Shown here: one piece after another, positions 55,876 to 64,000 of the stretch
Numbering within the stretch: position 1 is the first letter of the stretch
Layout of the letters: every line of letters starts with the position of its first letter
Source of the DNA: an uncultured bacterium
GTDB taxonomy: Bacteria; Patescibacteriota; Minisyncoccia; Phycocordibacterales; Phycocordibacteraceae
DNA length: 64,000 bases
Direction: 5' to 3'
NCBI GenBank assembly: GCA_903825105.1
Contig: CAIJZI010000006.1
Span: forward strand, 87,368-151,367
Position numbers and translations under genes: made by a program
Notes under the pieces: generated by a model
Seen by the model: the letters and a program-made list of their open reading frames with translations, nothing else
Databases searched by the model: none
Told to the model about the DNA's origin: nothing

Positions 55876-56251
55876 ATCAAATAAAATACCACGTATAAAA
55901 TAATAAACCGCCTTGTGGGCGGTCTTGGGGGTCATAGGGGCCGGACGACAGGAACTCCACACGGGACGTTCTTGTCAGTTGTCCGACCCCTACCTATAGG
56001 AAATTTTCTTTTCATGAGGGCGACCTCGGAATGGCTGTTTGGACGAGTGTCTTACGACGGTTATATATCTTCCACTATATAAAACCGACGAACAGAGAGT
56101 GCGGTACATCCTCGAATTGTTCCCCTTTCCCCTCTTTGCTTTTGTGCTGTAGCGTTTTAGGCGCCGGAGCCGGTCAAACAACCGGCCAAGTTGCTATCCT
56201 ACTCTTCATCGAAATTTAATGCAAGTGGGGTTATCCACAGCCTGTAACGGG

Positions 56252-56767
56252 CTACAACTTCCTGCTATCGTACGCCCAGTGCAGGACTGCCTGTCTTTGT
56301 TTAGTGTGACAAGCGAAGTCGCCGATACGGCAATGCTTTTTTATTTGCGCTATATGCCGGCGAATAGCTACCCAGCGTTTAATCTGTCGGTCGTCGTCTG
56401 GCCCGCGTCGGCCCATATAATATCGGCAATACCATTGAAACCATCCTCGTGGATCATCTTTATAAATCCACCCCTTCTCGCGCCAGACCGAGAGTGGCTG
56501 ACTGGCATTCACTCCAAAGAAGTTGAACTCCGAATCATGCTTGTATGAACCTTTCTTTTGAAATCTTGCTTTGGCGAACCAGTCTCGAGAGAACTCTTTT
56601 GTACAATCGCGCATATATACCCCACCGAAGACCCCGAGCGCGAGCATCTTCTTCGGACTAAGCTCGGGCTTAAAACGCGGGTCAAAATGCTCGCCCACAG
56701 GCTCGGTCAATTCGTAGCGATAGCCCTTCTGCATCTTGTCAGACACTCGAATCGTTTTGGTTCTCAT
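56252..56767 (-). CDS. hypothetical protein (conserved-looking, family not recognised)
   Basis: 171 aa; Trp/Tyr/Arg-rich block GWFQWYCRYYMGRRGPDDDRQIKRW. Confidence 0.45.
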   Translation of the reverse strand: MRTKTIRVSDKMQKGYRYELTEPVGEHFDPRFKPELSPKKMLALGVFGGVYMRDCTKEFSRDWFAKARFQKKGSYKHDSEFNFFGVNASQPLSVWREKGWIYKDDPRGWFQWYCRYYMGRRGPDDDRQIKRWVAIRRHIAQIKKHCRIGDFACHTKQRQAVLHWAYDSRKL

Positions 56768-57042
56768 ACTAGAAGTGTACAGGATAAATGATGCGTCTTG
56801 TAGAAACCTTGGAAATCTTCGTCGAAATTTTCTGGATTTGTCGGAAATTTTTGGATAAAAAATTTCCGCCCGAATTCAATTCCATCGGAATCGTCCGGAT
56901 GAGACGATTCCGATGCGAATTCAAAAACAATAAAAGCTGTCCGTGCGGACAGCTTTTATCGTTTTTGAATTCGGCTGGCCTCCTCGGTCTCGTACTTTCT
57001 ACCGTCAAGCCCCCGTTGGGTTTCCTGGCGGCATCTCCAAGT

Positions 57043-57747
57043 TCACTTCGACGCTCTTCGGAATGACATCATCTTATCGATAAATTCTTGTTTGAACGTG
57101 ACATATCTTGAACCGTTTTCCTCCCTTTCCTCGATATAGCTCGGGTATGGTTGCCTCTGATGTATGTTCGGATCGTCCATATTCGCGTCTATCCGCAATC
57201 CGGGTAATGGCATTATTCTCTGTGCAACCGCAGATCCTACTTCTTTGCCACCCTTCTTGAATCTAAGATGAATGGTCCAAATGCTTATAAACGGACGCTC
57301 GGTCGTCAGCCGCTGTCGGAGAATATTTATCCACTCTTCGCTCTTTTCATGATTAACAAAGACAAGGAGACTAAATTTCACTGGCTCCGTGCCATATTGC
57401 TTTTGCTTCTTCTCAACAACTTTTAGGAATTCCTCGAATGATTTAAAGTGCGGATAGACACCGGTTAATTCTACAGGCTCAATCCTAAACTCCTCGGGCG
57501 TCTCGCCAAAAGAAATGAAGTCGAAATCTGGATACGACCTTTCTGCCTGATTGAACTGAGCAAGCCACCAGTCCTTACCTGTATATTTCTTCATTGCGAG
57601 CGTAAAGAAATACGCAGCGAAACCCTCGCGAGCTTTCTTAACTGCCTCCTCAGAACTACCAAAAAACTTCTCGGCATCAACCCTTTTTAAAACATCTTCC
57701 ACCTGCCGAAATAGGGTGTGCGGATGTGCGAAATGTATTCCGTTCAC
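57043..57747 (-). CDS. hypothetical protein
   Basis: 234-aa ORF, lower-GC region. Confidence 0.45.
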   Translation of the reverse strand: MNGIHFAHPHTLFRQVEDVLKRVDAEKFFGSSEEAVKKAREGFAAYFFTLAMKKYTGKDWWLAQFNQAERSYPDFDFISFGETPEEFRIEPVELTGVYPHFKSFEEFLKVVEKKQKQYGTEPVKFSLLVFVNHEKSEEWINILRQRLTTERPFISIWTIHLRFKKGGKEVGSAVAQRIMPLPGLRIDANMDDPNIHQRQPYPSYIEEREENGSRYVTFKQEFIDKMMSFRRASK

Positions 57748-57795
57748 AATGGATCAATTTTACCGTTCCTGACTCAATGCGACAAAGTGAAGATA

Positions 57796-58191
57796 TTATC
57801 TATGACGTATCCCAATTTGAGTCAATATTATCCCGATCCAAGCAAACGACACTGCGTATATAGCGAACAGCAGTAAATCAATCCAATAGTTTGCAAAGAC
57901 CTCCGGTCCAAAAATAAGACCAACTAGAAAAAGAAGTCCGTAGTAACAGTAGTTGTATAGAACGCTGCCGAGCATGGCCCATCGGCCAGTGAAGAGAAAC
58001 TCAGTAGTCGCTATAACGAGAAAGAATGTCAGGAGGCCAAGCACCAAAAGCCAGTCATGGATGAGAAAGTATAGAAGCATGTCCCACATCATGTGATAGG
58101 CCGTTTTCGTACCGTCATCCATAGCCTTAAACATCATGCTGACCAGATCTTTGTAGAAGTCGGGCCCAAATGGCGAGCTTGTTGCGTTCAT
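57796..58191 (-). CDS. hypothetical membrane protein (3-4 TM)
   Basis: 131 aa, mostly hydrophobic helices. Confidence 0.45.
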   Translation of the reverse strand: MNATSSPFGPDFYKDLVSMMFKAMDDGTKTAYHMMWDMLLYFLIHDWLLVLGLLTFFLVIATTEFLFTGRWAMLGSVLYNYCYYGLLFLVGLIFGPEVFANYWIDLLLFAIYAVSFAWIGIILTQIGIRHR

Positions 58192-58564
58192 ACTTGTTGA
58201 ACCAGCTTAACTGAACCTCCTTCATTTTTACAGGCCCTGTATAGAAATGAGACAAATGAGACACAGAGACGGGTGTCTCAAAACCGTTGTAAACAGGCAG
58301 GGCAAGATGGCATTGCAGCGACGATTGGACGACCTATACTGATTAGGTCGCATGGCAGATCCCAGCCGCGTGAGTCCGCAGGGACAGGGATAATTGGTTA
58401 AAAAATTTGCGCATGATGTAGAGCCCATCGCGCGGGCTGGAGAAATCCAGAAGGCTCACCTTCGAAGATCGCGGAACCCCAACCGCGCGACAAATAGGGA
58501 CGAAGGAACACACCTTTAACGAGGCGTGTGTTTTGTGCGTTATACACACTAATTCTTCGACTAT

Positions 58565-59833
58565 ATGTCCAAGCTAAACATCACCTATGTGCCCGTCACT
58601 GCCCTAAAGGCAGCGGCCTATAACCCTCGTGCATGGAGCAAGGAAGCCATCGACCAGTTGACTGCAAGCATCAAGCAATACGGCTTTGTTGACCCACTGC
58701 TCGTTAACTCTGCACCGAAGCGTAAGGGGGTGGTTATCGGCGGGCACTTCCGCCTGTCGATCGCCAAGAGTCTTGGCATTAAGGAAGTGCCGGTCGTATA
58801 CCTCAATATCCCCGACCTTAGGCGCGAGAAGGAGTTGAACCTTCGTCTCAACAAGAACGTCGGCGATTGGGACTGGAAGAGGCTCGCGGAGGATTTTGAT
58901 GTCGGCGATCTGATGTCCGTCGGTTTCAGCAACGACGATCTTGGTCGCATCTTCGATGACAATGCCGATGTGAAAGACGACGGGTTCGACGAAGAACAAG
59001 AGATCGAACGTGCCAAGATCACGAAGATTAAGCCGGGCGATATGTTTGCCTTGGGTCGCCACCGTCTGCTCTGCGCAGACGCGACCGATCCTGAAAGTGC
59101 AAGAAAGCTGATGGCCGGAGTACGTGCTGACATGATCAACGACGACCCGCCATACAACATCGGTCTCTCATACGACAAGGGTGTAGGCGGCAAGGCGAAG
59201 TACGGGGGAAAGCACAACGATAGCCAATCCGAAGCAGAGTACCGCGCGTTCGTGAAGTCGGTGATGGAAAATGCGCTTGCGGTCTCAAAGCCCGATGCTC
59301 ATGTATTCTTCTGGTGCGATGAGCGTTGGGTATACCTTTTCCAGCAGTTGTACGCAGAACTCGGCATTCATTCCCTGCGCCTGTGCATCTGGATCAAGGA
59401 CAACCAGTCTCCGACACCAAATGCCGCCTTCAACAAGGTGACGGAATTTGTCGCATACGGAACCGTTGGTCGTCCGTACCTCAATGACAAGGTCGCCAAC
59501 CTCAACGAGATCATCAATAAGGAGACGACGACCGGCAACCAGCTTACTGAGGACATTCTCGATCTTCTCAATATCTGGCTGGTGAAGCGCATTGCTGGAA
59601 CCGACTATCAGCATCCCACCCAGAAGCCACCGACTCTCCACGAGAAGGCACTGCGCCGTTGTACTCGCCCAGGTGATGCGGTACTAGATCTCACCGCTGG
59701 ATCAGGGAGCATCCTCTCGGCGTGCGAGCAATTGGGTCGCACGGCGTACTGCTGCGAGATGGAGCCGATCTTCTGCCAGGTCATCATTAATCGGTACGAG
59801 AAGTTGACCGGCCTTAAGGCACGCAAGGTATGA
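58565..59833 (+). CDS. ParB-like nuclease domain fused to an N6-adenine/N4-cytosine DNA methyltransferase
   Basis: N-terminal ParB/Srx fold (KRKGVVIGGHFRLSIAKSLG); MTase motif IV DPPY and motif I (VLDLTAGSGS). Confidence 0.8.
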   Translation: MSKLNITYVPVTALKAAAYNPRAWSKEAIDQLTASIKQYGFVDPLLVNSAPKRKGVVIGGHFRLSIAKSLGIKEVPVVYLNIPDLRREKELNLRLNKNVGDWDWKRLAEDFDVGDLMSVGFSNDDLGRIFDDNADVKDDGFDEEQEIERAKITKIKPGDMFALGRHRLLCADATDPESARKLMAGVRADMINDDPPYNIGLSYDKGVGGKAKYGGKHNDSQSEAEYRAFVKSVMENALAVSKPDAHVFFWCDERWVYLFQQLYAELGIHSLRLCIWIKDNQSPTPNAAFNKVTEFVAYGTVGRPYLNDKVANLNEIINKETTTGNQLTEDILDLLNIWLVKRIAGTDYQHPTQKPPTLHEKALRRCTRPGDAVLDLTAGSGSILSACEQLGRTAYCCEMEPIFCQVIINRYEKLTGLKARKV

Positions 59834-60267
59834 GCAAGCCGCAAACCATCGAGGAGCGACAGTCGCGGGAGAAGGGGCTCTTGCTCGAACAGCTCAAGAA
59901 GGTGCCGATTGTGCACATCGCCTGCGAGAAGTCTGGGGTGGGTCGTGCCACCTATTACCGCTGGCGCGATGAAGATGAAGTATTCAAGAAGGCCGCCGAT
60001 GCGGCGCTCGTCGAGGGCGAGGCATTGATTACCGACATGTCGGAATCACAGCTGATCTCGCTCATCAAGGACCGCAAGTTCCCCGCCGTGCATCTGTGGC
60101 TGCGCCAGCACCACCCAAAGTACAAGGACAAGATCGAGGTTGTCACTCGCTCCGCAGAAGATGACACGCTCACGCCTGAACAGGAAGCAATTGTGAAAAA
60201 GGCGCTCAAACTGGGAGGGATTATTAATTCAAAGAAACACCATGGCAACTGCAAGAAAGGAGTATAA
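59830..60267 (+). CDS. putative phage terminase small subunit / HTH DNA-binding protein
   Basis: HTH KSGVGRATYYRWR; position immediately upstream of the terminase large subunit ATPase. Confidence 0.5.
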   Translation: MSKPQTIEERQSREKGLLLEQLKKVPIVHIACEKSGVGRATYYRWRDEDEVFKKAADAALVEGEALITDMSESQLISLIKDRKFPAVHLWLRQHHPKYKDKIEVVTRSAEDDTLTPEQEAIVKKALKLGGIINSKKHHGNCKKGV

Positions 60268-61243
60268 CGAGATCATCCATGCCATGCTTGCCGACAAGGC
60301 TGTTCGTCGGTCAATCGTACGCAAGAGTCATTACCTGTTCTTTTGCTTCTATCTCAGCCACTACATGGAGTACGAGATGGCCCCATTCCATAGGGAGATG
60401 TTCAACCTGTCGCAAAGCAAGCGCAACAAGTTCTTGGTCATCATGGCTGCTCGCGGGTTCGCCAAGTCTACGATCTTGAACCTGTCATACGCACTCTGGT
60501 CGATACTGGGAGAGCAAAAGAAGAAGTTTGTCCTCATCATCAGCGGTACGCATAGCCAAGCAAGATATCACTTCATGAATATTCGTGAGGAATTGAAGAA
60601 TAATCCTAGGTTAGCAGCAGATCTAGGGCCATTCGAGACAGACGACGCTGGCTGGGGAGTGAACTCCCTCTCGCTTCCGAAGATGGGAGCGCGCATCTCG
60701 CTCGCCTCGCGCGAGCAAGCCCTGCGCGGTATTCGCTCCGGCCAGTATCGCCCTGATCTCATTATCTGCGACGACCTTGAGGATTCGAGGGATGTAGAGT
60801 CTATTGCGGAGCGGACCGCCTCCTACCAATGGTTCGTTAATGAGGTCATGTCTGCGGGAAGCAAGAACACCAACGTGGTTGTCTTGGGGAATTTGCTGCA
60901 CGAAGACTCACTGCTCATGCGACTGAAGAAGGACATTGAGCAAAAGAAGATAGCCGGAGTCTTCCGCGCGTATCCTCTACTGGATGATGATGGTCGCATT
61001 ATGTGGCCGGGAAAGTATGGCTCGCAAAAGCAGATCGAGGCCTTACAAATGAGCGTACTGGATACGGAAACATGGGAGCGCGAATATCTGTTGAAGTATC
61101 GAGGACATTTCAGCCTTATACAGCTTGGGAAGGAGCGGGATGAGTTGACGCGGCTTGGAGCTGAAGAGTATCGGAGGATTCACCCAAAGCCAGAACCGTA
61201 TCGCCTAGGTGAGTATCGCATTAGCGCACCAACTAAGTTGTAG
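60242..61243 (+). CDS. phage terminase large subunit, ATPase domain only (apparently truncated)
   Basis: Walker A MAARGFAKST, Walker B LIICDDLED; 333 aa with no nuclease domain. Confidence 0.65.
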   Translation: MATARKEYNEIIHAMLADKAVRRSIVRKSHYLFFCFYLSHYMEYEMAPFHREMFNLSQSKRNKFLVIMAARGFAKSTILNLSYALWSILGEQKKKFVLIISGTHSQARYHFMNIREELKNNPRLAADLGPFETDDAGWGVNSLSLPKMGARISLASREQALRGIRSGQYRPDLIICDDLEDSRDVESIAERTASYQWFVNEVMSAGSKNTNVVVLGNLLHEDSLLMRLKKDIEQKKIAGVFRAYPLLDDDGRIMWPGKYGSQKQIEALQMSVLDTETWEREYLLKYRGHFSLIQLGKERDELTRLGAEEYRRIHPKPEPYRLGEYRISAPTKL

Positions 61244-61395
61244 ATCGCTTTTCCTTCTGTATTTTCTCCCAACACATTCTCAATTCATCCTCGGTCGCGT
61301 GACCGGGTATTTGACCTGTGCTCTCAAAATGCCGTATCAGGTCTACTGCAAATTCGTACCGAGTCTGATCGTTATCGTTTGAGAACTGCGACCTA

Positions 61396-61626
61396 CTAGA
61401 GTCCATACTTGTGTAAGCAGGTGCTGTACTGGAAATTATACTCAGTAGTCGTAGCGTCCGGATGAGCGACTCCAAAGTCGTGGATGTATGCTTCGCAATT
61501 CATCCTTATATTTGCAGGACGCACTTCGAACCAATAGAAGGCACCCACCAAGATCAGCAGTATAAGTATGACCTGATAATGAAGACGAGCGAAGTCGAAT
61601 ACGGCTTTTACGTATGGATTTTTCAT
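61396..61626 (-). CDS. small membrane protein (holin-like?)
   Basis: 76 aa, one TM. Confidence 0.35.
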   Translation of the reverse strand: MKNPYVKAVFDFARLHYQVILILLILVGAFYWFEVRPANIRMNCEAYIHDFGVAHPDATTTEYNFQYSTCLHKYGL

Positions 61627-61850
61627 ACGCCGCCGACTTTAGCTTTCTGGACTCTTGCGCTGATGGATTTATAGATCCACACCAGTCCGCAAACGAGTCC
61701 GAGTATAACGAGAAATCCGCCGACTACATGAGTAATGGCGGAGTTAACACTTGAGATTATTGCGCCTCCGAGAATACCAGTGATGGCGTTCCTGCCGTAG
61801 TCCTTTTGAGTCCAATCTCTGACGGAGAGATATCGATGTTTGCTTTCCAC
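61623..61850 (-). CDS. small membrane protein (holin-like?)
   Basis: 75 aa, two TM, Gly-rich. Confidence 0.35.
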   Translation of the reverse strand: MESKHRYLSVRDWTQKDYGRNAITGILGGAIISSVNSAITHVVGGFLVILGLVCGLVWIYKSISARVQKAKVGGV

Positions 61851-62099
61851 GTTGAATTATCGTTATGGATAAATCCGGGTCGGCGGGTAGCACAAAACCC
61901 GCCACCAGGAGCCCTTGCGGGCCTATAGGAGTTTCCCCCTATAACGCATCGAACGCCCTGATGACGGGTTTTCTAGGTTCGATGCGATTTGCGACCATGC
62001 CATTGACCGAAGTCACTGGTTTAGGTCGGTACTAGCCAAAGCTAGTACCTTAAAGATATCTCACTTTAGGGGTTCTGCGAAGACCTTGCTTGAAGACAA

Positions 62100-64000
62100 T
62101 TATTTAGGGGCGATATTTCCCTTTTCTACCTCCGCCCATTTCCAATATTCTTCGTTCTCCTTATTAGTCTTGAAGGGCATTAACCCCGCGATACCTTCTA
62201 CTAGCGCCTTTTTAAGGGCAACGTTCCCCTCGCTTTCTATTCTTAATTTAATATCGTCAAAATTGGACTTTCTATCCTCATATTTAGGCTTCAGAGCTTG
62301 TAGTACAAGCGATGTTTCAGCGATATGAGCAGCCTGATCCGACTTACGTAGGATTTCATCGAATAGAAAGTGTACGAATTCGTTCTTTTCCTCCTGATTT
62401 AGTTCCTCAAATCCGATTGCTACTGCATGAATTAACGAAGGTTGGCATTTGGGAGAAATTTCAGGTTTCTTAAGCCAATCAAAAGTCTCTTTCACTATCT
62501 TCCTCGTAAGTTCTTTGGAAAGAGTTGCCTCCTCGAAAGCCCCAAGTCCAACCTTTTGGAGGGCTTGATCCATCGTCATAAGACAGGCACCAATCTTTGT
62601 GGCTAAGGTTTCTCTAATCACCGCCTCACCATTGGCCTTATGTTTGTTGATGAATGAGAAAATTTTACGTTTCTGATCTGAATTCGCACCGTCATATTTA
62701 GACCAAATCTTTTCAGCGATAGCAAAGACGTGATTTACGTCTTTCGTGTTCAACGTATCAAAGAACGCAATTGCCTTGTCGAGATCGTAATTAAGAATTC
62801 GTTCGAGAAATTGTTGTTTTCTGGAGTTGTTGAGGAGACCAAAAAAATTATCTCTGAAAACCTGGTCTGCAAGTCCTCGGTTTGCCGCAGTGTCAAAAAT
62901 CGACTGGACATCGAAGAAGAGGGCTTGTGTATCGGGTGAAAGATCCCTGTAAGCTACCTCCAGTGCGTCGGAGGATACATTTCCTAACCAGCTACTCACA
63001 AAACGTTCAGTCTCATCTTTTTTGGGTGGGCTTAGTAAGTCCCGCATCTCAAAAAGAACTGGCACAAATACCGATCTAATTTGATGGTCTGCAGGTGCAT
63101 TGAACCCTGCGTTTAGGACATCCGCAAACGCATCTTTCGTGGCAGCAGAAACGGAAGAAAGTATCGGACCATGGGCCCTGAGGAATTCTCTATATTGATC
63201 TAGGAGTTTTTTCTTTTCCGGATATGTCTCTGGTTTAGAGTTTTGGTTCTCTCCAACCTGCAAATCAATAAACTTTCTTATTAGGACTTCTCCGTCTACT
63301 TGTGTTAGCAAAGCAGTAGTAAATTTATTGAGGACTTCCACTCTACTACTCACGTCATCAATAGCTCCCCCAGCAGGAATATTGCTTGCAAAGTTGCGGA
63401 GATATTCTGCTGTCACAAGGGCATCCTGGGCTTCGGGAGATTTAACGAGTATCTTCGCGGTCTCTATATCATTTGCCAGATGGTTAACCAGCAGATTTCT
63501 AACCTTTGTTTTTTGATCAGCTCCCAAGTAATCGGGTTGTGTAGCAAATATTGTAATGATCTTTCTTACATAATCTTTGTCAGACTTGTGTGTGTTCGGT
63601 CCAGATAGAACGTCGTCAATTACGGTAATCCATTGAGGGACGACAGTTTTACGATACTTTGTATTTCTAGTAAGAAAAGCATCATTCAGAATGTCGGGCG
63701 AGATTGTATGCAACTCCTCTTTACAACGCCCGGCAAGGATATTATTTATCTCTTCGTAAAGAGTGGATGCTAGTACTGTCTTCTTTTCCGAAAGGATCAC
63801 TAAAAGCGTATGGATGAGGTTTATCGAGGAGACCGGATTCGTCTTACTTTCCAACTCCTCCTTTATTGCCTGACTAAAGTCAGTCATTAAATCTACTTTT
63901 GCCAAATCCCCAATTTGATCAAAGTATTTAGCTGCATCTTCCGTATTCCTGTCCTCTAGGTGCGCAATGAGGGTTTCAAAGCCGGGGAACTTCTTTTCTT
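62100..64000 (-). CDS. large alpha-helical hypothetical protein, low GC; N-terminus probably beyond the window
   Basis: The reading frame stays open to the window edge; the listed ORF start is a TTG; codon usage unlike the core genes. Confidence 0.5.
   Translation of the reverse strand, partial: EKKFPGFETLIAHLEDRNTEDAAKYFDQIGDLAKVDLMTDFSQAIKEELESKTNPVSSINLIHTLLVILSEKKTVLASTLYEEINNILAGRCKEELHTISPDILNDAFLTRNTKYRKTVVPQWITVIDDVLSGPNTHKSDKDYVRKIITIFATQPDYLGADQKTKVRNLLVNHLANDIETAKILVKSPEAQDALVTAEYLRNFASNIPAGGAIDDVSSRVEVLNKFTTALLTQVDGEVLIRKFIDLQVGENQNSKPETYPEKKKLLDQYREFLRAHGPILSSVSAATKDAFADVLNAGFNAPADHQIRSVFVPVLFEMRDLLSPPKKDETERFVSSWLGNVSSDALEVAYRDLSPDTQALFFDVQSIFDTAANRGLADQVFRDNFFGLLNNSRKQQFLERILNYDLDKAIAFFDTLNTKDVNHVFAIAEKIWSKYDGANSDQKRKIFSFINKHKANGEAVIRETLATKIGACLMTMDQALQKVGLGAFEEATLSKELTRKIVKETFDWLKKPEISPKCQPSLIHAVAIGFEELNQEEKNEFVHFLFDEILRKSDQAAHIAETSLVLQALKPKYEDRKSNFDDIKLRIESEGNVALKKALVEGIAGLMPFKTNKENEEYWKWAEVEKGNIAPK

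Follow-up and report, generated by a model that had tools for sequence, protein, structure and literature searches.

A capsid-less mobile island of ultra-small bacteria with a nuclease-less terminase gene and a LOOT RNA

The right-hand end of a 64,000-nucleotide (nt) stretch of contig CAIJZI010000006.1 (the window) carries phage-type packaging genes, and this raises the question as to whether a prophage has decayed here in the chromosome of a member of the Candidate Phyla Radiation (CPR), or whether these genes belong to an element that is maintained in this form. A first-pass annotation of the sequence had described the region from base 55876 onwards as phage-derived, mosaic and mobile, which is upheld by our analysis, and had proposed a decayed prophage with a truncated terminase, which is not. 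Rather than a rotting prophage, the region represents a single copy of a small mobile island that is widespread among ultra-small (CPR) bacteria. Our best explanation, to which we give a probability of roughly 0.55, is that the sequence from 57.8 to 64.0 kb and onward is most of one discrete, capsid-less integrative element of about 6-15 kb that is satellite-like and would be packaged by a helper phage. All coordinates are those of the whole window on the forward strand, and features were identified from a listing of open reading frames (ORFs) and from family scans with Pfam, PHROG and Rfam (Table 1).

The core of the locus is a cassette of three overlapping genes. The first encodes, as annotated before, a fusion of a ParB-like domain with an N6/N4 DNA methyltransferase (MTase); both Pfam domains exceed their cut-offs (ParB_N, 1.2e-10; N6_N4_Mtase, 3.3e-28), and its translation contains the motifs DPPY and GGHFR. 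The second, whose start overlaps the MTase stop and whose end overlaps the start of the third, encodes a helix-turn-helix (HTH) protein in the position of a terminase small subunit (TerS). The third is the gene for the ATPase of a terminase large subunit (TerL), on which a hidden Markov model (HMM) of the nuclease domain, built from full-length relatives, scores zero, in agreement with the earlier remark that this protein stops after 333 residues without a nuclease domain. Pfam and PHROG scans detected no portal, capsid, tail or lysis genes in the window. Serine recombinase homologs likewise number zero in the 64 kb, so that the annotated lack of an integrase stands, and no homolog of a LexA-like repressor is present anywhere in the same 64 kb.

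The cassette is far from unique. In each of six neighbourhoods of homologs, the genes for a ParB-MTase, a ~140-residue protein and TerL overlap, while the surrounding chromosomal contexts are unrelated; structural genes are lacking, and a large serine recombinase gene repeatedly lies a few kb downstream. When a single genome of each GTDB species was scanned, relatives of the TerL turned up in more than 544 species genomes, nearly all of them Patescibacteria (Saccharibacteria, Paceibacterota, Gracili-, Peregrini-, Dojka- and Berkelbacteria, and others). We clustered the ORFs of all fetched loci, cited here by L numbers, and calculated frequencies over 115 non-redundant loci. The recurrent order is a LexA-like S24 repressor on the minus strand, a small plus-strand gene, the MTase (often with a second MTase), TerS and TerL, followed by as many as six cargo genes, or none, and finally by the serine recombinase (phrog_95 integrase). 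The MTase is the first gene of the cassette and is present in 94% of the loci, as is the TerS-like family; a serine recombinase is found within 10 kb in 73% and directly after TerL in 27%, and the LexA-like repressor in 28%. The cargo is of defence type, with ThsB-TIR, SMODS/SAVED, a Sie-like OB-fold protein, type III restriction-modification, AbiU2 and a KAP NTPase, and also includes parts of diversity-generating retroelements. Such parts (a reverse transcriptase and a bAvd gene) lie beside or inside the islands at L008 (17248-18694), L094 (19958-21332), L102 and L109. The otherwise CPR-restricted island is also carried by metagenome-assembled genomes (MAGs) titled 'uncultured Gammaproteobacteria' or 'Flavobacteriaceae' (L010, L013, L015, L020 and others), whose record titles may be wrong or whose bins may be contaminated.

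Where, then, does the island end and the phage world begin? IMG/VR contigs with a TerL at least 40% identical to that of the window have the island architecture, whereas those with a TerL at most 39% identical are real phages, the nearest at 38-39%. Downstream of TerL, these nearest phages encode a portal (phrog_2662, 5.8e-123), then a prohead protease and a major capsid protein (phrog_10, 1.5e-59), and some of them (L129, L136) also place an MTase before TerS. Queries with 165 proteins from their head and tail modules against the 2.0 Mb of 129 island loci gave a single marginal match and otherwise no homolog. The closest TerLs of cultured phages are no more than 35% identical to that of the window.

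The boundaries of the element are clearest in a MAG that contains two copies (L054 and L055). These share two blocks that are 93-95% identical and have sharp ends, giving an element span of 9.3-10 kb. The left end starts with TGCGGGGACACTCGTGTTAGGAC, which is also seen in L050 from another MAG and does not occur in the window; the right end falls within the 3' end of the recombinase gene, and the repressor-side cargo between the two blocks differs. Between L050 and L054, with 97.5% identity in TerL, there is one clean difference of 1.18 kb: a promoter, a LOOT RNA and one gene are inserted precisely after the TerL stop and before the recombinase. Individual modules have different histories as well. 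For example, the MTase of the window is 90% identical to that of L006 (and 87% to that of L009), while the TerS-like protein is 78% and TerL 54% identical to the L006 counterparts, and such uneven identity recurs among elements with a full-length TerL. Judging from these comparisons, modules are shuffled between lineages, and 'mosaic' is correct in that sense.

These data make it extremely improbable that the region descends from a complete temperate phage that entered the chromosome here, shed its genes for structure, lysis and replication and recently had its TerL cut short by a mutation. Such a history would account for the phage origin of the genes, for the absence of structural genes and for a window copy without repressor or visible recombinase, and real phages with the order MTase-TerS-TerL-portal do exist. 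However, 115 loci from many CPR classes would not have arrived by independent decay at one and the same set of genes with sharp ends in common, bounded by a recombinase and never accompanied by structural genes. In addition, tblastn searches of the non-coding stretches for pseudogene traces of the repressor and of the f12 and f13 families gave no match, and the short TerL belongs to a conserved clade, as described below.

The same observations bear on the idea of a complete autonomous agent with its particle genes elsewhere, akin to a gene transfer agent (GTA), or of a TerL that serves as a pump for non-capsid transfer. The island is very widespread in CPR bacteria, in which few prophages are known, and its cassette is always intact, as would be expected of such an agent. 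Against this, the island shows the signs of mobility (variable insertion contexts, two copies per MAG, a terminal recombinase and module shuffling), structural homologs are absent from 2 Mb of flanks, and we know of no function for a terminase without a portal. We therefore regard a GTA-like agent or pump as very unlikely.

An important question is whether the short TerL is a damaged gene. TerL has 2617 homologs, and the closest of these (50-57% identity) are mostly 331-350 residues long and come from CPR metagenomes. Aligned with full-length relatives, the protein has a 48-residue tail where those have the nuclease motifs IGVDLAIS, DKRSRL and HDDLADAF. In the AlphaFold2 (AF2) model, which is confident including the tail (pLDDT, the predicted local distance difference test, 93.9), the tail is predicted to form two helices and a beta-hairpin bearing LGEYRISAP. 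A variable linker precedes the C-terminal end of the short forms, and 22 of the 37 such proteins among the top matches then carry LGxYxISAP. Of 43 nuclease-less TerLs in a tree built from 224 ATPase domains, 42 fall into one clade, with two parsimony changes, and identities within this clade go down to 41-45% for the pairs measured. By comparison, 198 of 251 TerLs scored retain a complete nuclease domain with its catalytic motifs. L040, L057, L106, L110, L112 and L114 each have two different full-length TerL genes in tandem before the recombinase.

The ATPase itself appears to be in good order. R71, K75-S76-T77, R162-G163, D177-D178-x-E180 and G216-N217-L-L, which are invariant in 120 homologs, are all present in the window TerL, so that Walker A, Walker B with the catalytic Glu, the arginine finger and the C-motif are intact. 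We considered a defect in Walker A, which reads RGFAKST rather than RGSGKST, and rejected it because 39 of 119 homologs also have Ala at position 74. At columns conserved in at least 90% of the family the window TerL departs only three times, which is ordinary for the family, and the top PDB fold matches of the model are all TerL ATPase domains (T4 gp17, P74-26, D6E, HK97 and PhiV-1). PDB sequence searches with TerL, the TerS-like protein and the 171-residue protein discussed below gave nothing useful. The single conserved clade, the intact ATPase residues and the tail motif in many members argue against a recent truncation, contrary to the earlier annotation, which had itself named a short form that is full length for its own family as an outcome that would refute it; on the evidence of sequence and model, the TerL of this sublineage most probably lost its nuclease domain once, long ago, while keeping a working ATPase. 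A TerL without a nuclease requires either a borrowed nuclease or a different role. The TerS-like gene overlaps its start, and there is no portal homolog in the window or in any element locus.

A different role is what the main rival to our explanation proposes, at least for the nuclease-less clade: the cassette would be an anti-phage or addiction module on an integrative island, in which the MTase marks self DNA and the TerS-like protein and TerL bind the DNA, TerS or portal of an invader and so poison its packaging motor. The element would then move only when excised by its recombinase and transferred by natural transformation or in some other way. In favour of this, defence cargo is abundant in the elements, a conserved nuclease-less TerL suits a dominant-negative role better than packaging, and the MTase is swapped independently of TerL in the style of defence islands, as seen in the comparison with L006. 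Moreover, packaging-interference proteins encoded by satellites are established in phage-inducible chromosomal islands (PICIs). On the other hand, the large majority of TerLs with a complete nuclease points to real DNA cutting and packaging, PADLOC models match neither TerS nor TerL, and the tight overlapping operon resembles phage packaging modules. We consider this reading possible, if on balance unlikely.

The Rfam scan revealed a component that the first-pass annotation had missed, namely a full-length LOOT RNA on the minus strand to the right of the cassette. The copy in the window shows the consensus structure with GNRA and UUCG loops and has a fold z-score of -6.0. Our own covariance model, built from the window and L004 copies and refined once, gives it 113.8 bits; between these two copies all 33 of 33 pairs are held, with seven compensatory changes. 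In 33 distinct copies, 96.2% of cells are paired and 29 of the 33 pairs have changed on both sides, a level of covariation reached by 0 of 500 shuffles. Conservation continues past both ends of the Rfam model. Directly past the model end, GGYGGGYUUUUGUG is present in 68 of 94 copies, and in the minimum free energy (MFE) fold of the window copy this 3' extension forms a hairpin (CCUGGUGGCGGG-UUUUGUGCUA-CCCGCCGACCCGG) with a U-rich loop. On the other side an optional 5' hairpin (GGUACUAGC-UUUG-GCUAGUACC) abuts LOOT, as it also does in L009, L093, L004, L027, L023, L085, L032 and L125. Also conserved upstream of the model are a -10-like box and ACAATTNAATA.

Our model detects LOOT in 44 of ~129 island loci; the 46 related phage loci yielded no copy. 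In the islands it is invariably followed, 15-150 nt downstream, by a gene in the same orientation; this gene varies by locus and usually encodes a protein with predicted membrane segments (33 of 41). The start of the recombinase gene is often ~130-170 nt off the other side of LOOT, in divergent orientation. Is LOOT then a hallmark of the island? In a reverse test, LOOT was fished from metagenomes by a DNA pattern, which yielded 54 model-confirmed copies. In the available flanks only ~6 of these have the TerL cassette and ~11 a serine recombinase, so that an RNA exclusive to this element was rejected and LOOT is evidently broader than the island. The downstream proteins again have membrane segments in 34 of 43 cases. 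In L077, L078, L007, L089, L123, L180 and L016, LOOT is followed by zinc-ribbon (CxxC...CxxC) proteins with one membrane segment. The constant feature of LOOT thus appears, from these contexts, to be that of a promoter-proximal 5' element before variable membrane-protein genes, and this position suggests a 5' leader rather than the free-standing small RNA as which Rfam files it.

The clean 1.18-kb indel between L050 and L054 invites comparison with integrons, which share with the island a recombinase gene divergent from a conserved element and variable genes after it, with the promoter-LOOT-gene unit behaving as a cassette beside the recombinase. Unlike in integrons, the recombinase of the island is a serine and not a tyrosine enzyme, each cassette has its own promoter and 5' RNA and no 3' attC, there are usually just one or two genes in the slot, and no recombination site has been identified. 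One could nevertheless imagine that promoter-LOOT-gene is a mobile cassette captured at the recombinase end, and that the nuclease-less TerL is a decoy which jams the motor of incoming CPR phages; LOOT would then be a 5' element that is recognised by the system or that licenses expression of the following membrane or defence gene. If true, the island would unite satellite and defence island in one domesticated element, with RNA-tagged cassettes of a kind not described before. We regard this combination as quite unlikely.

The presence of an ATPase without nuclease beside LOOT is also reminiscent of phi29, in which gp16, a packaging ATPase of ~330 residues without a working nuclease, acts beside the structured pRNA of ~120 nt. 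The sole computed link is a weak fold match of TerL to phi28 gp11 (E = 8.5e-4, rank 36). In contrast to the phi29 system, LOOT also occurs with full-length TerLs, is absent from about 60% of the elements and is mostly TerL-free in metagenomes; its orientation and position suit a gene leader, and the island has no portal.

Between TerL and LOOT the window contains two small minus-strand ORFs. They had been annotated as convergent small membrane proteins and as holin-like; both ORFs exist, but they are arranged in tandem and converge on TerL rather than on each other, neither matches a holin family in Pfam or PHROG, and no lysin is nearby. The first of them starts 59 nt after LOOT. The second is a homolog of a 76-residue gene product at the same position in L001 and is weakly similar to the product of the LOOT-downstream gene of L103. 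Both are in keeping with the kind of membrane protein that LOOT typically precedes. An exact look-up of the TerS-like protein retrieved only contigs of 7 kb or less that are identical to the window; two such contigs, from independent metagenome assemblies, break at 61612-61657, inside these small genes shortly before LOOT, which hints at strain-level variation in the cargo slot.

On the far side of LOOT, the large ORF that was described as running off the window does so. The ORF listing gave 62100..63905 with a TTG start, but the frame is in fact stop-free to base 64000. The full-length protein (P0133) has PF07693 on record, as do 18 homologs. This domain falls outside the window, and the C-terminal ~630 residues within it have no family match in Pfam. 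The N-terminal P-loop weakly matches QatA and PifA, a likeness to known KAP defence NTPases that is tempered by a score of 53.9 bits against a cut-off of 600 for QatA and by the lack of Qat partner genes. The KAP NTPase is, on this sequence evidence, probably a defence-type cargo. In L093 the order is MTase, TerS, a nuclease-less TerL (392 residues), a small gene, LOOT, a KAP NTPase that is 59% identical to that of the window in the same position, and then a serine recombinase. By analogy, since the recombinase follows directly after the KAP NTPase there, the recombinase of the window copy should start ~1.5 kb beyond the window end.

The left end is harder to place. The leftmost gene that can apparently be tied to the element family encodes a 131-residue membrane protein, which has no Pfam or PHROG match and is 43% identical to a protein in the upstream cargo block of L032 and 36% identical to one beside the recombinase in L094. 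It is the rightmost of the three minus-strand ORFs that had been listed here, all of which we recover. The middle one shows no sequence relationship to families f12 and f13 and may belong either to the cargo or to the host. The leftmost encodes a 171-residue protein whose W/Y/R-rich block, noted before, is indeed conserved across 57 diverse homologs (W95, W100, G108-W109-F110, W112-Y113, R115 and G119-R120-R121 are near-invariant), with the nearly invariant motif GWFQWYxRYYxGRRxxDDxRQIxRW. This protein has more than 8000 homologs in 2282 clusters at 50% identity, is 75-87% identical across Paceibacterota and, in another genome, is encoded with ordinary chromosomal genes as neighbours. It matches no model of Pfam, PHROG or NCBIfam, and its confident AF2 model (pLDDT 95.6) gave no fold match in the PDB and a single, unnamed viral one. 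Sequence conservation and context indicate a conserved host gene and not cargo, so the mobile part begins to the right of base 55876, where the first-pass annotation had placed its start. Given that the 131-residue protein has island homologs, the left end would lie between 56768 and 57796. The spacer after the host gene is dense in hairpins, with perfect ones at 56842-56973 (an 11-bp stem, a 13-bp stem and a palindrome with 28-nt arms at 56916-56973) that could be a bidirectional terminator or the left element junction; as a conjecture, the left end may coincide with this spacer.

Some non-coding and compositional features deserve a brief comment. The stretch at 55876-56251, annotated as hairpin-rich, is indeed non-coding but only moderately structured (z = -3.3), and the striking hairpins are those of the spacer just mentioned. 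The non-coding stretch with a hairpin between the 131-residue gene and the cassette is present as annotated (stem TGAGACAC/GTGTCTCA) and has a fold z-score of -2.2, and tblastn detected no remnant there of any gene of the family; at its position, other elements have the divergent LexA-like repressor and the small plus-strand gene. Finally, an alternating guanine-cytosine (GC) content had been taken as a mark of the region. GC does swing between 0.40 and 0.58 here, but the remainder of the window swings likewise (mean 0.476, standard deviation 0.041, range 0.34-0.59), so composition is no evidence for a foreign origin.

Table 1. Features at the right-hand end of the window, from left to right.
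Feature	Coordinates	Strand	Basis or remark
171-aa protein, probable host gene	56252..56767	-	
Hairpin-dense spacer	56768..57042		
Gene, cargo or host	57043..57747	-	
131-aa multi-pass membrane protein	57796..58191	-	Homologs in L032 and L094
373-bp non-coding region, presumed control region of the MTase-TerS-TerL operon	58192..58564	.	8-bp hairpin at 58257-58280
ParB-like domain + N6/N4 DNA methyltransferase	58565..59833	+	Pfam PF02195 + PF01555; phrog_498, 3e-93
145-aa HTH protein in terminase-small-subunit position	59830..60267	+	phrog_4044 (TerS), 1.5e-8
333-aa terminase large subunit, ATPase domain + 48-residue tail	60242..61243	+	phrog_38, positions 259-518 of 760
76-aa protein with N-terminal membrane anchor, second gene after LOOT	61396..61626	-	Converges on TerL
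75-aa membrane protein, first gene after LOOT	61623..61850	-	Transmembrane segment predicted from residue 31
3' extension of LOOT	61875..61909	-	Hairpin in MFE fold
LOOT RNA (Rfam RF03000), full length	61910..62027	-	78.8 bits against gathering score 46.4; model positions 1-121 of 121
Optional 5' hairpin abutting LOOT	62028..62049	-	In MFE fold
C-terminal 632 aa of 1093-aa KAP-family P-loop NTPase	62100..64000	-	100% match to P0133

How could such an element live? In the explanation that we favour, the recombinase would excise and integrate the element, and once repression is lifted the cassette would methylate the element DNA, recognise it and pump it into procapsids supplied by a co-resident helper phage of a related CPR lineage, making the element a phage satellite. 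Between such events, the integrated element would express LOOT-led membrane proteins and other cargo, here the KAP NTPase, to the advantage of the host, probably via superinfection exclusion or defence. The family architecture, the element boundaries, the lack of structural genes, the TerL clade and the placement of LOOT are observed directly, while helper dependence, the inducing signal and the role of LOOT are inferred. The nuclease-less sublineage might rely on the TerL of the helper or on the ParB-like domain as a nuclease, or might act on the motor of the helper.

The element shares several traits with known satellites (SaPI-type PICIs, capsid-forming PICIs (cfPICIs), PICMIs and P4-like elements). 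The element is likewise an integrative island of ~10 kb with an integrase at one end and often a repressor, it has a phage-derived TerS and accessory or defence cargo, and it combines the lack of a full virion module with genes that could redirect packaging. The size ratio also fits, as the nearest real phage contigs are ~33-40 kb. There are differences too. cfPICIs carry TerS, TerL, capsid, portal and HNH genes, and SaPIs carry TerS only, whereas the island encodes TerL besides TerS without capsid, portal or HNH genes. It has a large serine recombinase instead of a tyrosine integrase, the ParB-MTase comes first in the cassette, the host is a CPR bacterium, and both the helper and the induction are putative. 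The integrase and attachment ends of a satellite have their counterpart at the level of the family, in the terminal recombinase and the sharp ends of L050, L054 and L055, and neither is seen inside the 64 kb of the window. A master repressor together with a replication module is not a general property of the island: the repressor is confined to a minority of loci, and no primase or replicase module is recognisable. The packaging modules of temperate phages (the nearest examples being the IMG/VR contigs L129 and L132-L139) resemble the cassette in gene order, overlapping frames, MTase type and the 38-39% identity of TerL, but phages go on to portal, protease and capsid genes where the island stops at TerL and passes to the recombinase, and the small-subunit families are not detectably related.

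That last point is one of several that weigh against a helper-packaged satellite. The match of the TerS-like protein to phrog_4044 is confined to the N-terminal HTH, hhalign finds no detectable homology between this family and the same-position protein of the nearest real phages (probability 5.7%), and the putative TerS assignment rests on the HTH match together with gene position. A nuclease-less TerL cannot cut concatemers by itself, so that packaging in this sublineage needs an extra assumption. No circular or particle-derived form was seen, with zero terminal repeats on any whole contig, and no replication protein was recognised among the conserved island families. The absence of capsid genes is firm where boundaries are defined (L050, L054 and L055), while elsewhere such genes could lie more than 10 kb away. 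Lastly, the copy in the window lacks the LexA-like repressor, and its recombinase and both of its ends lie unseen.

We found no description of the island family, or of a link between LOOT and a recombinase or terminase, in the literature searched, the coverage of which was incomplete. For a phage satellite or integrative island, two of its parts are unusual, namely the clade of TerLs without a nuclease and the cargo slot led by LOOT. The former, being conserved, shows what a terminase motor can do without its nuclease, and the latter gives LOOT a reproducible genomic setting, which turns an orphan RNA into a testable regulatory element. There is also a practical consequence, since pipelines keyed on TerL score island loci as viral or as prophage, and many such loci are stored in IMG/VR. 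A large part of bacterial diversity belongs to the CPR, the mobile elements of which are little known. If the satellite explanation is true, a capsid-less island with TerS and TerL in hundreds of CPR species would constitute a new satellite family, and it would be the likely main route by which defence genes move among CPR bacteria.

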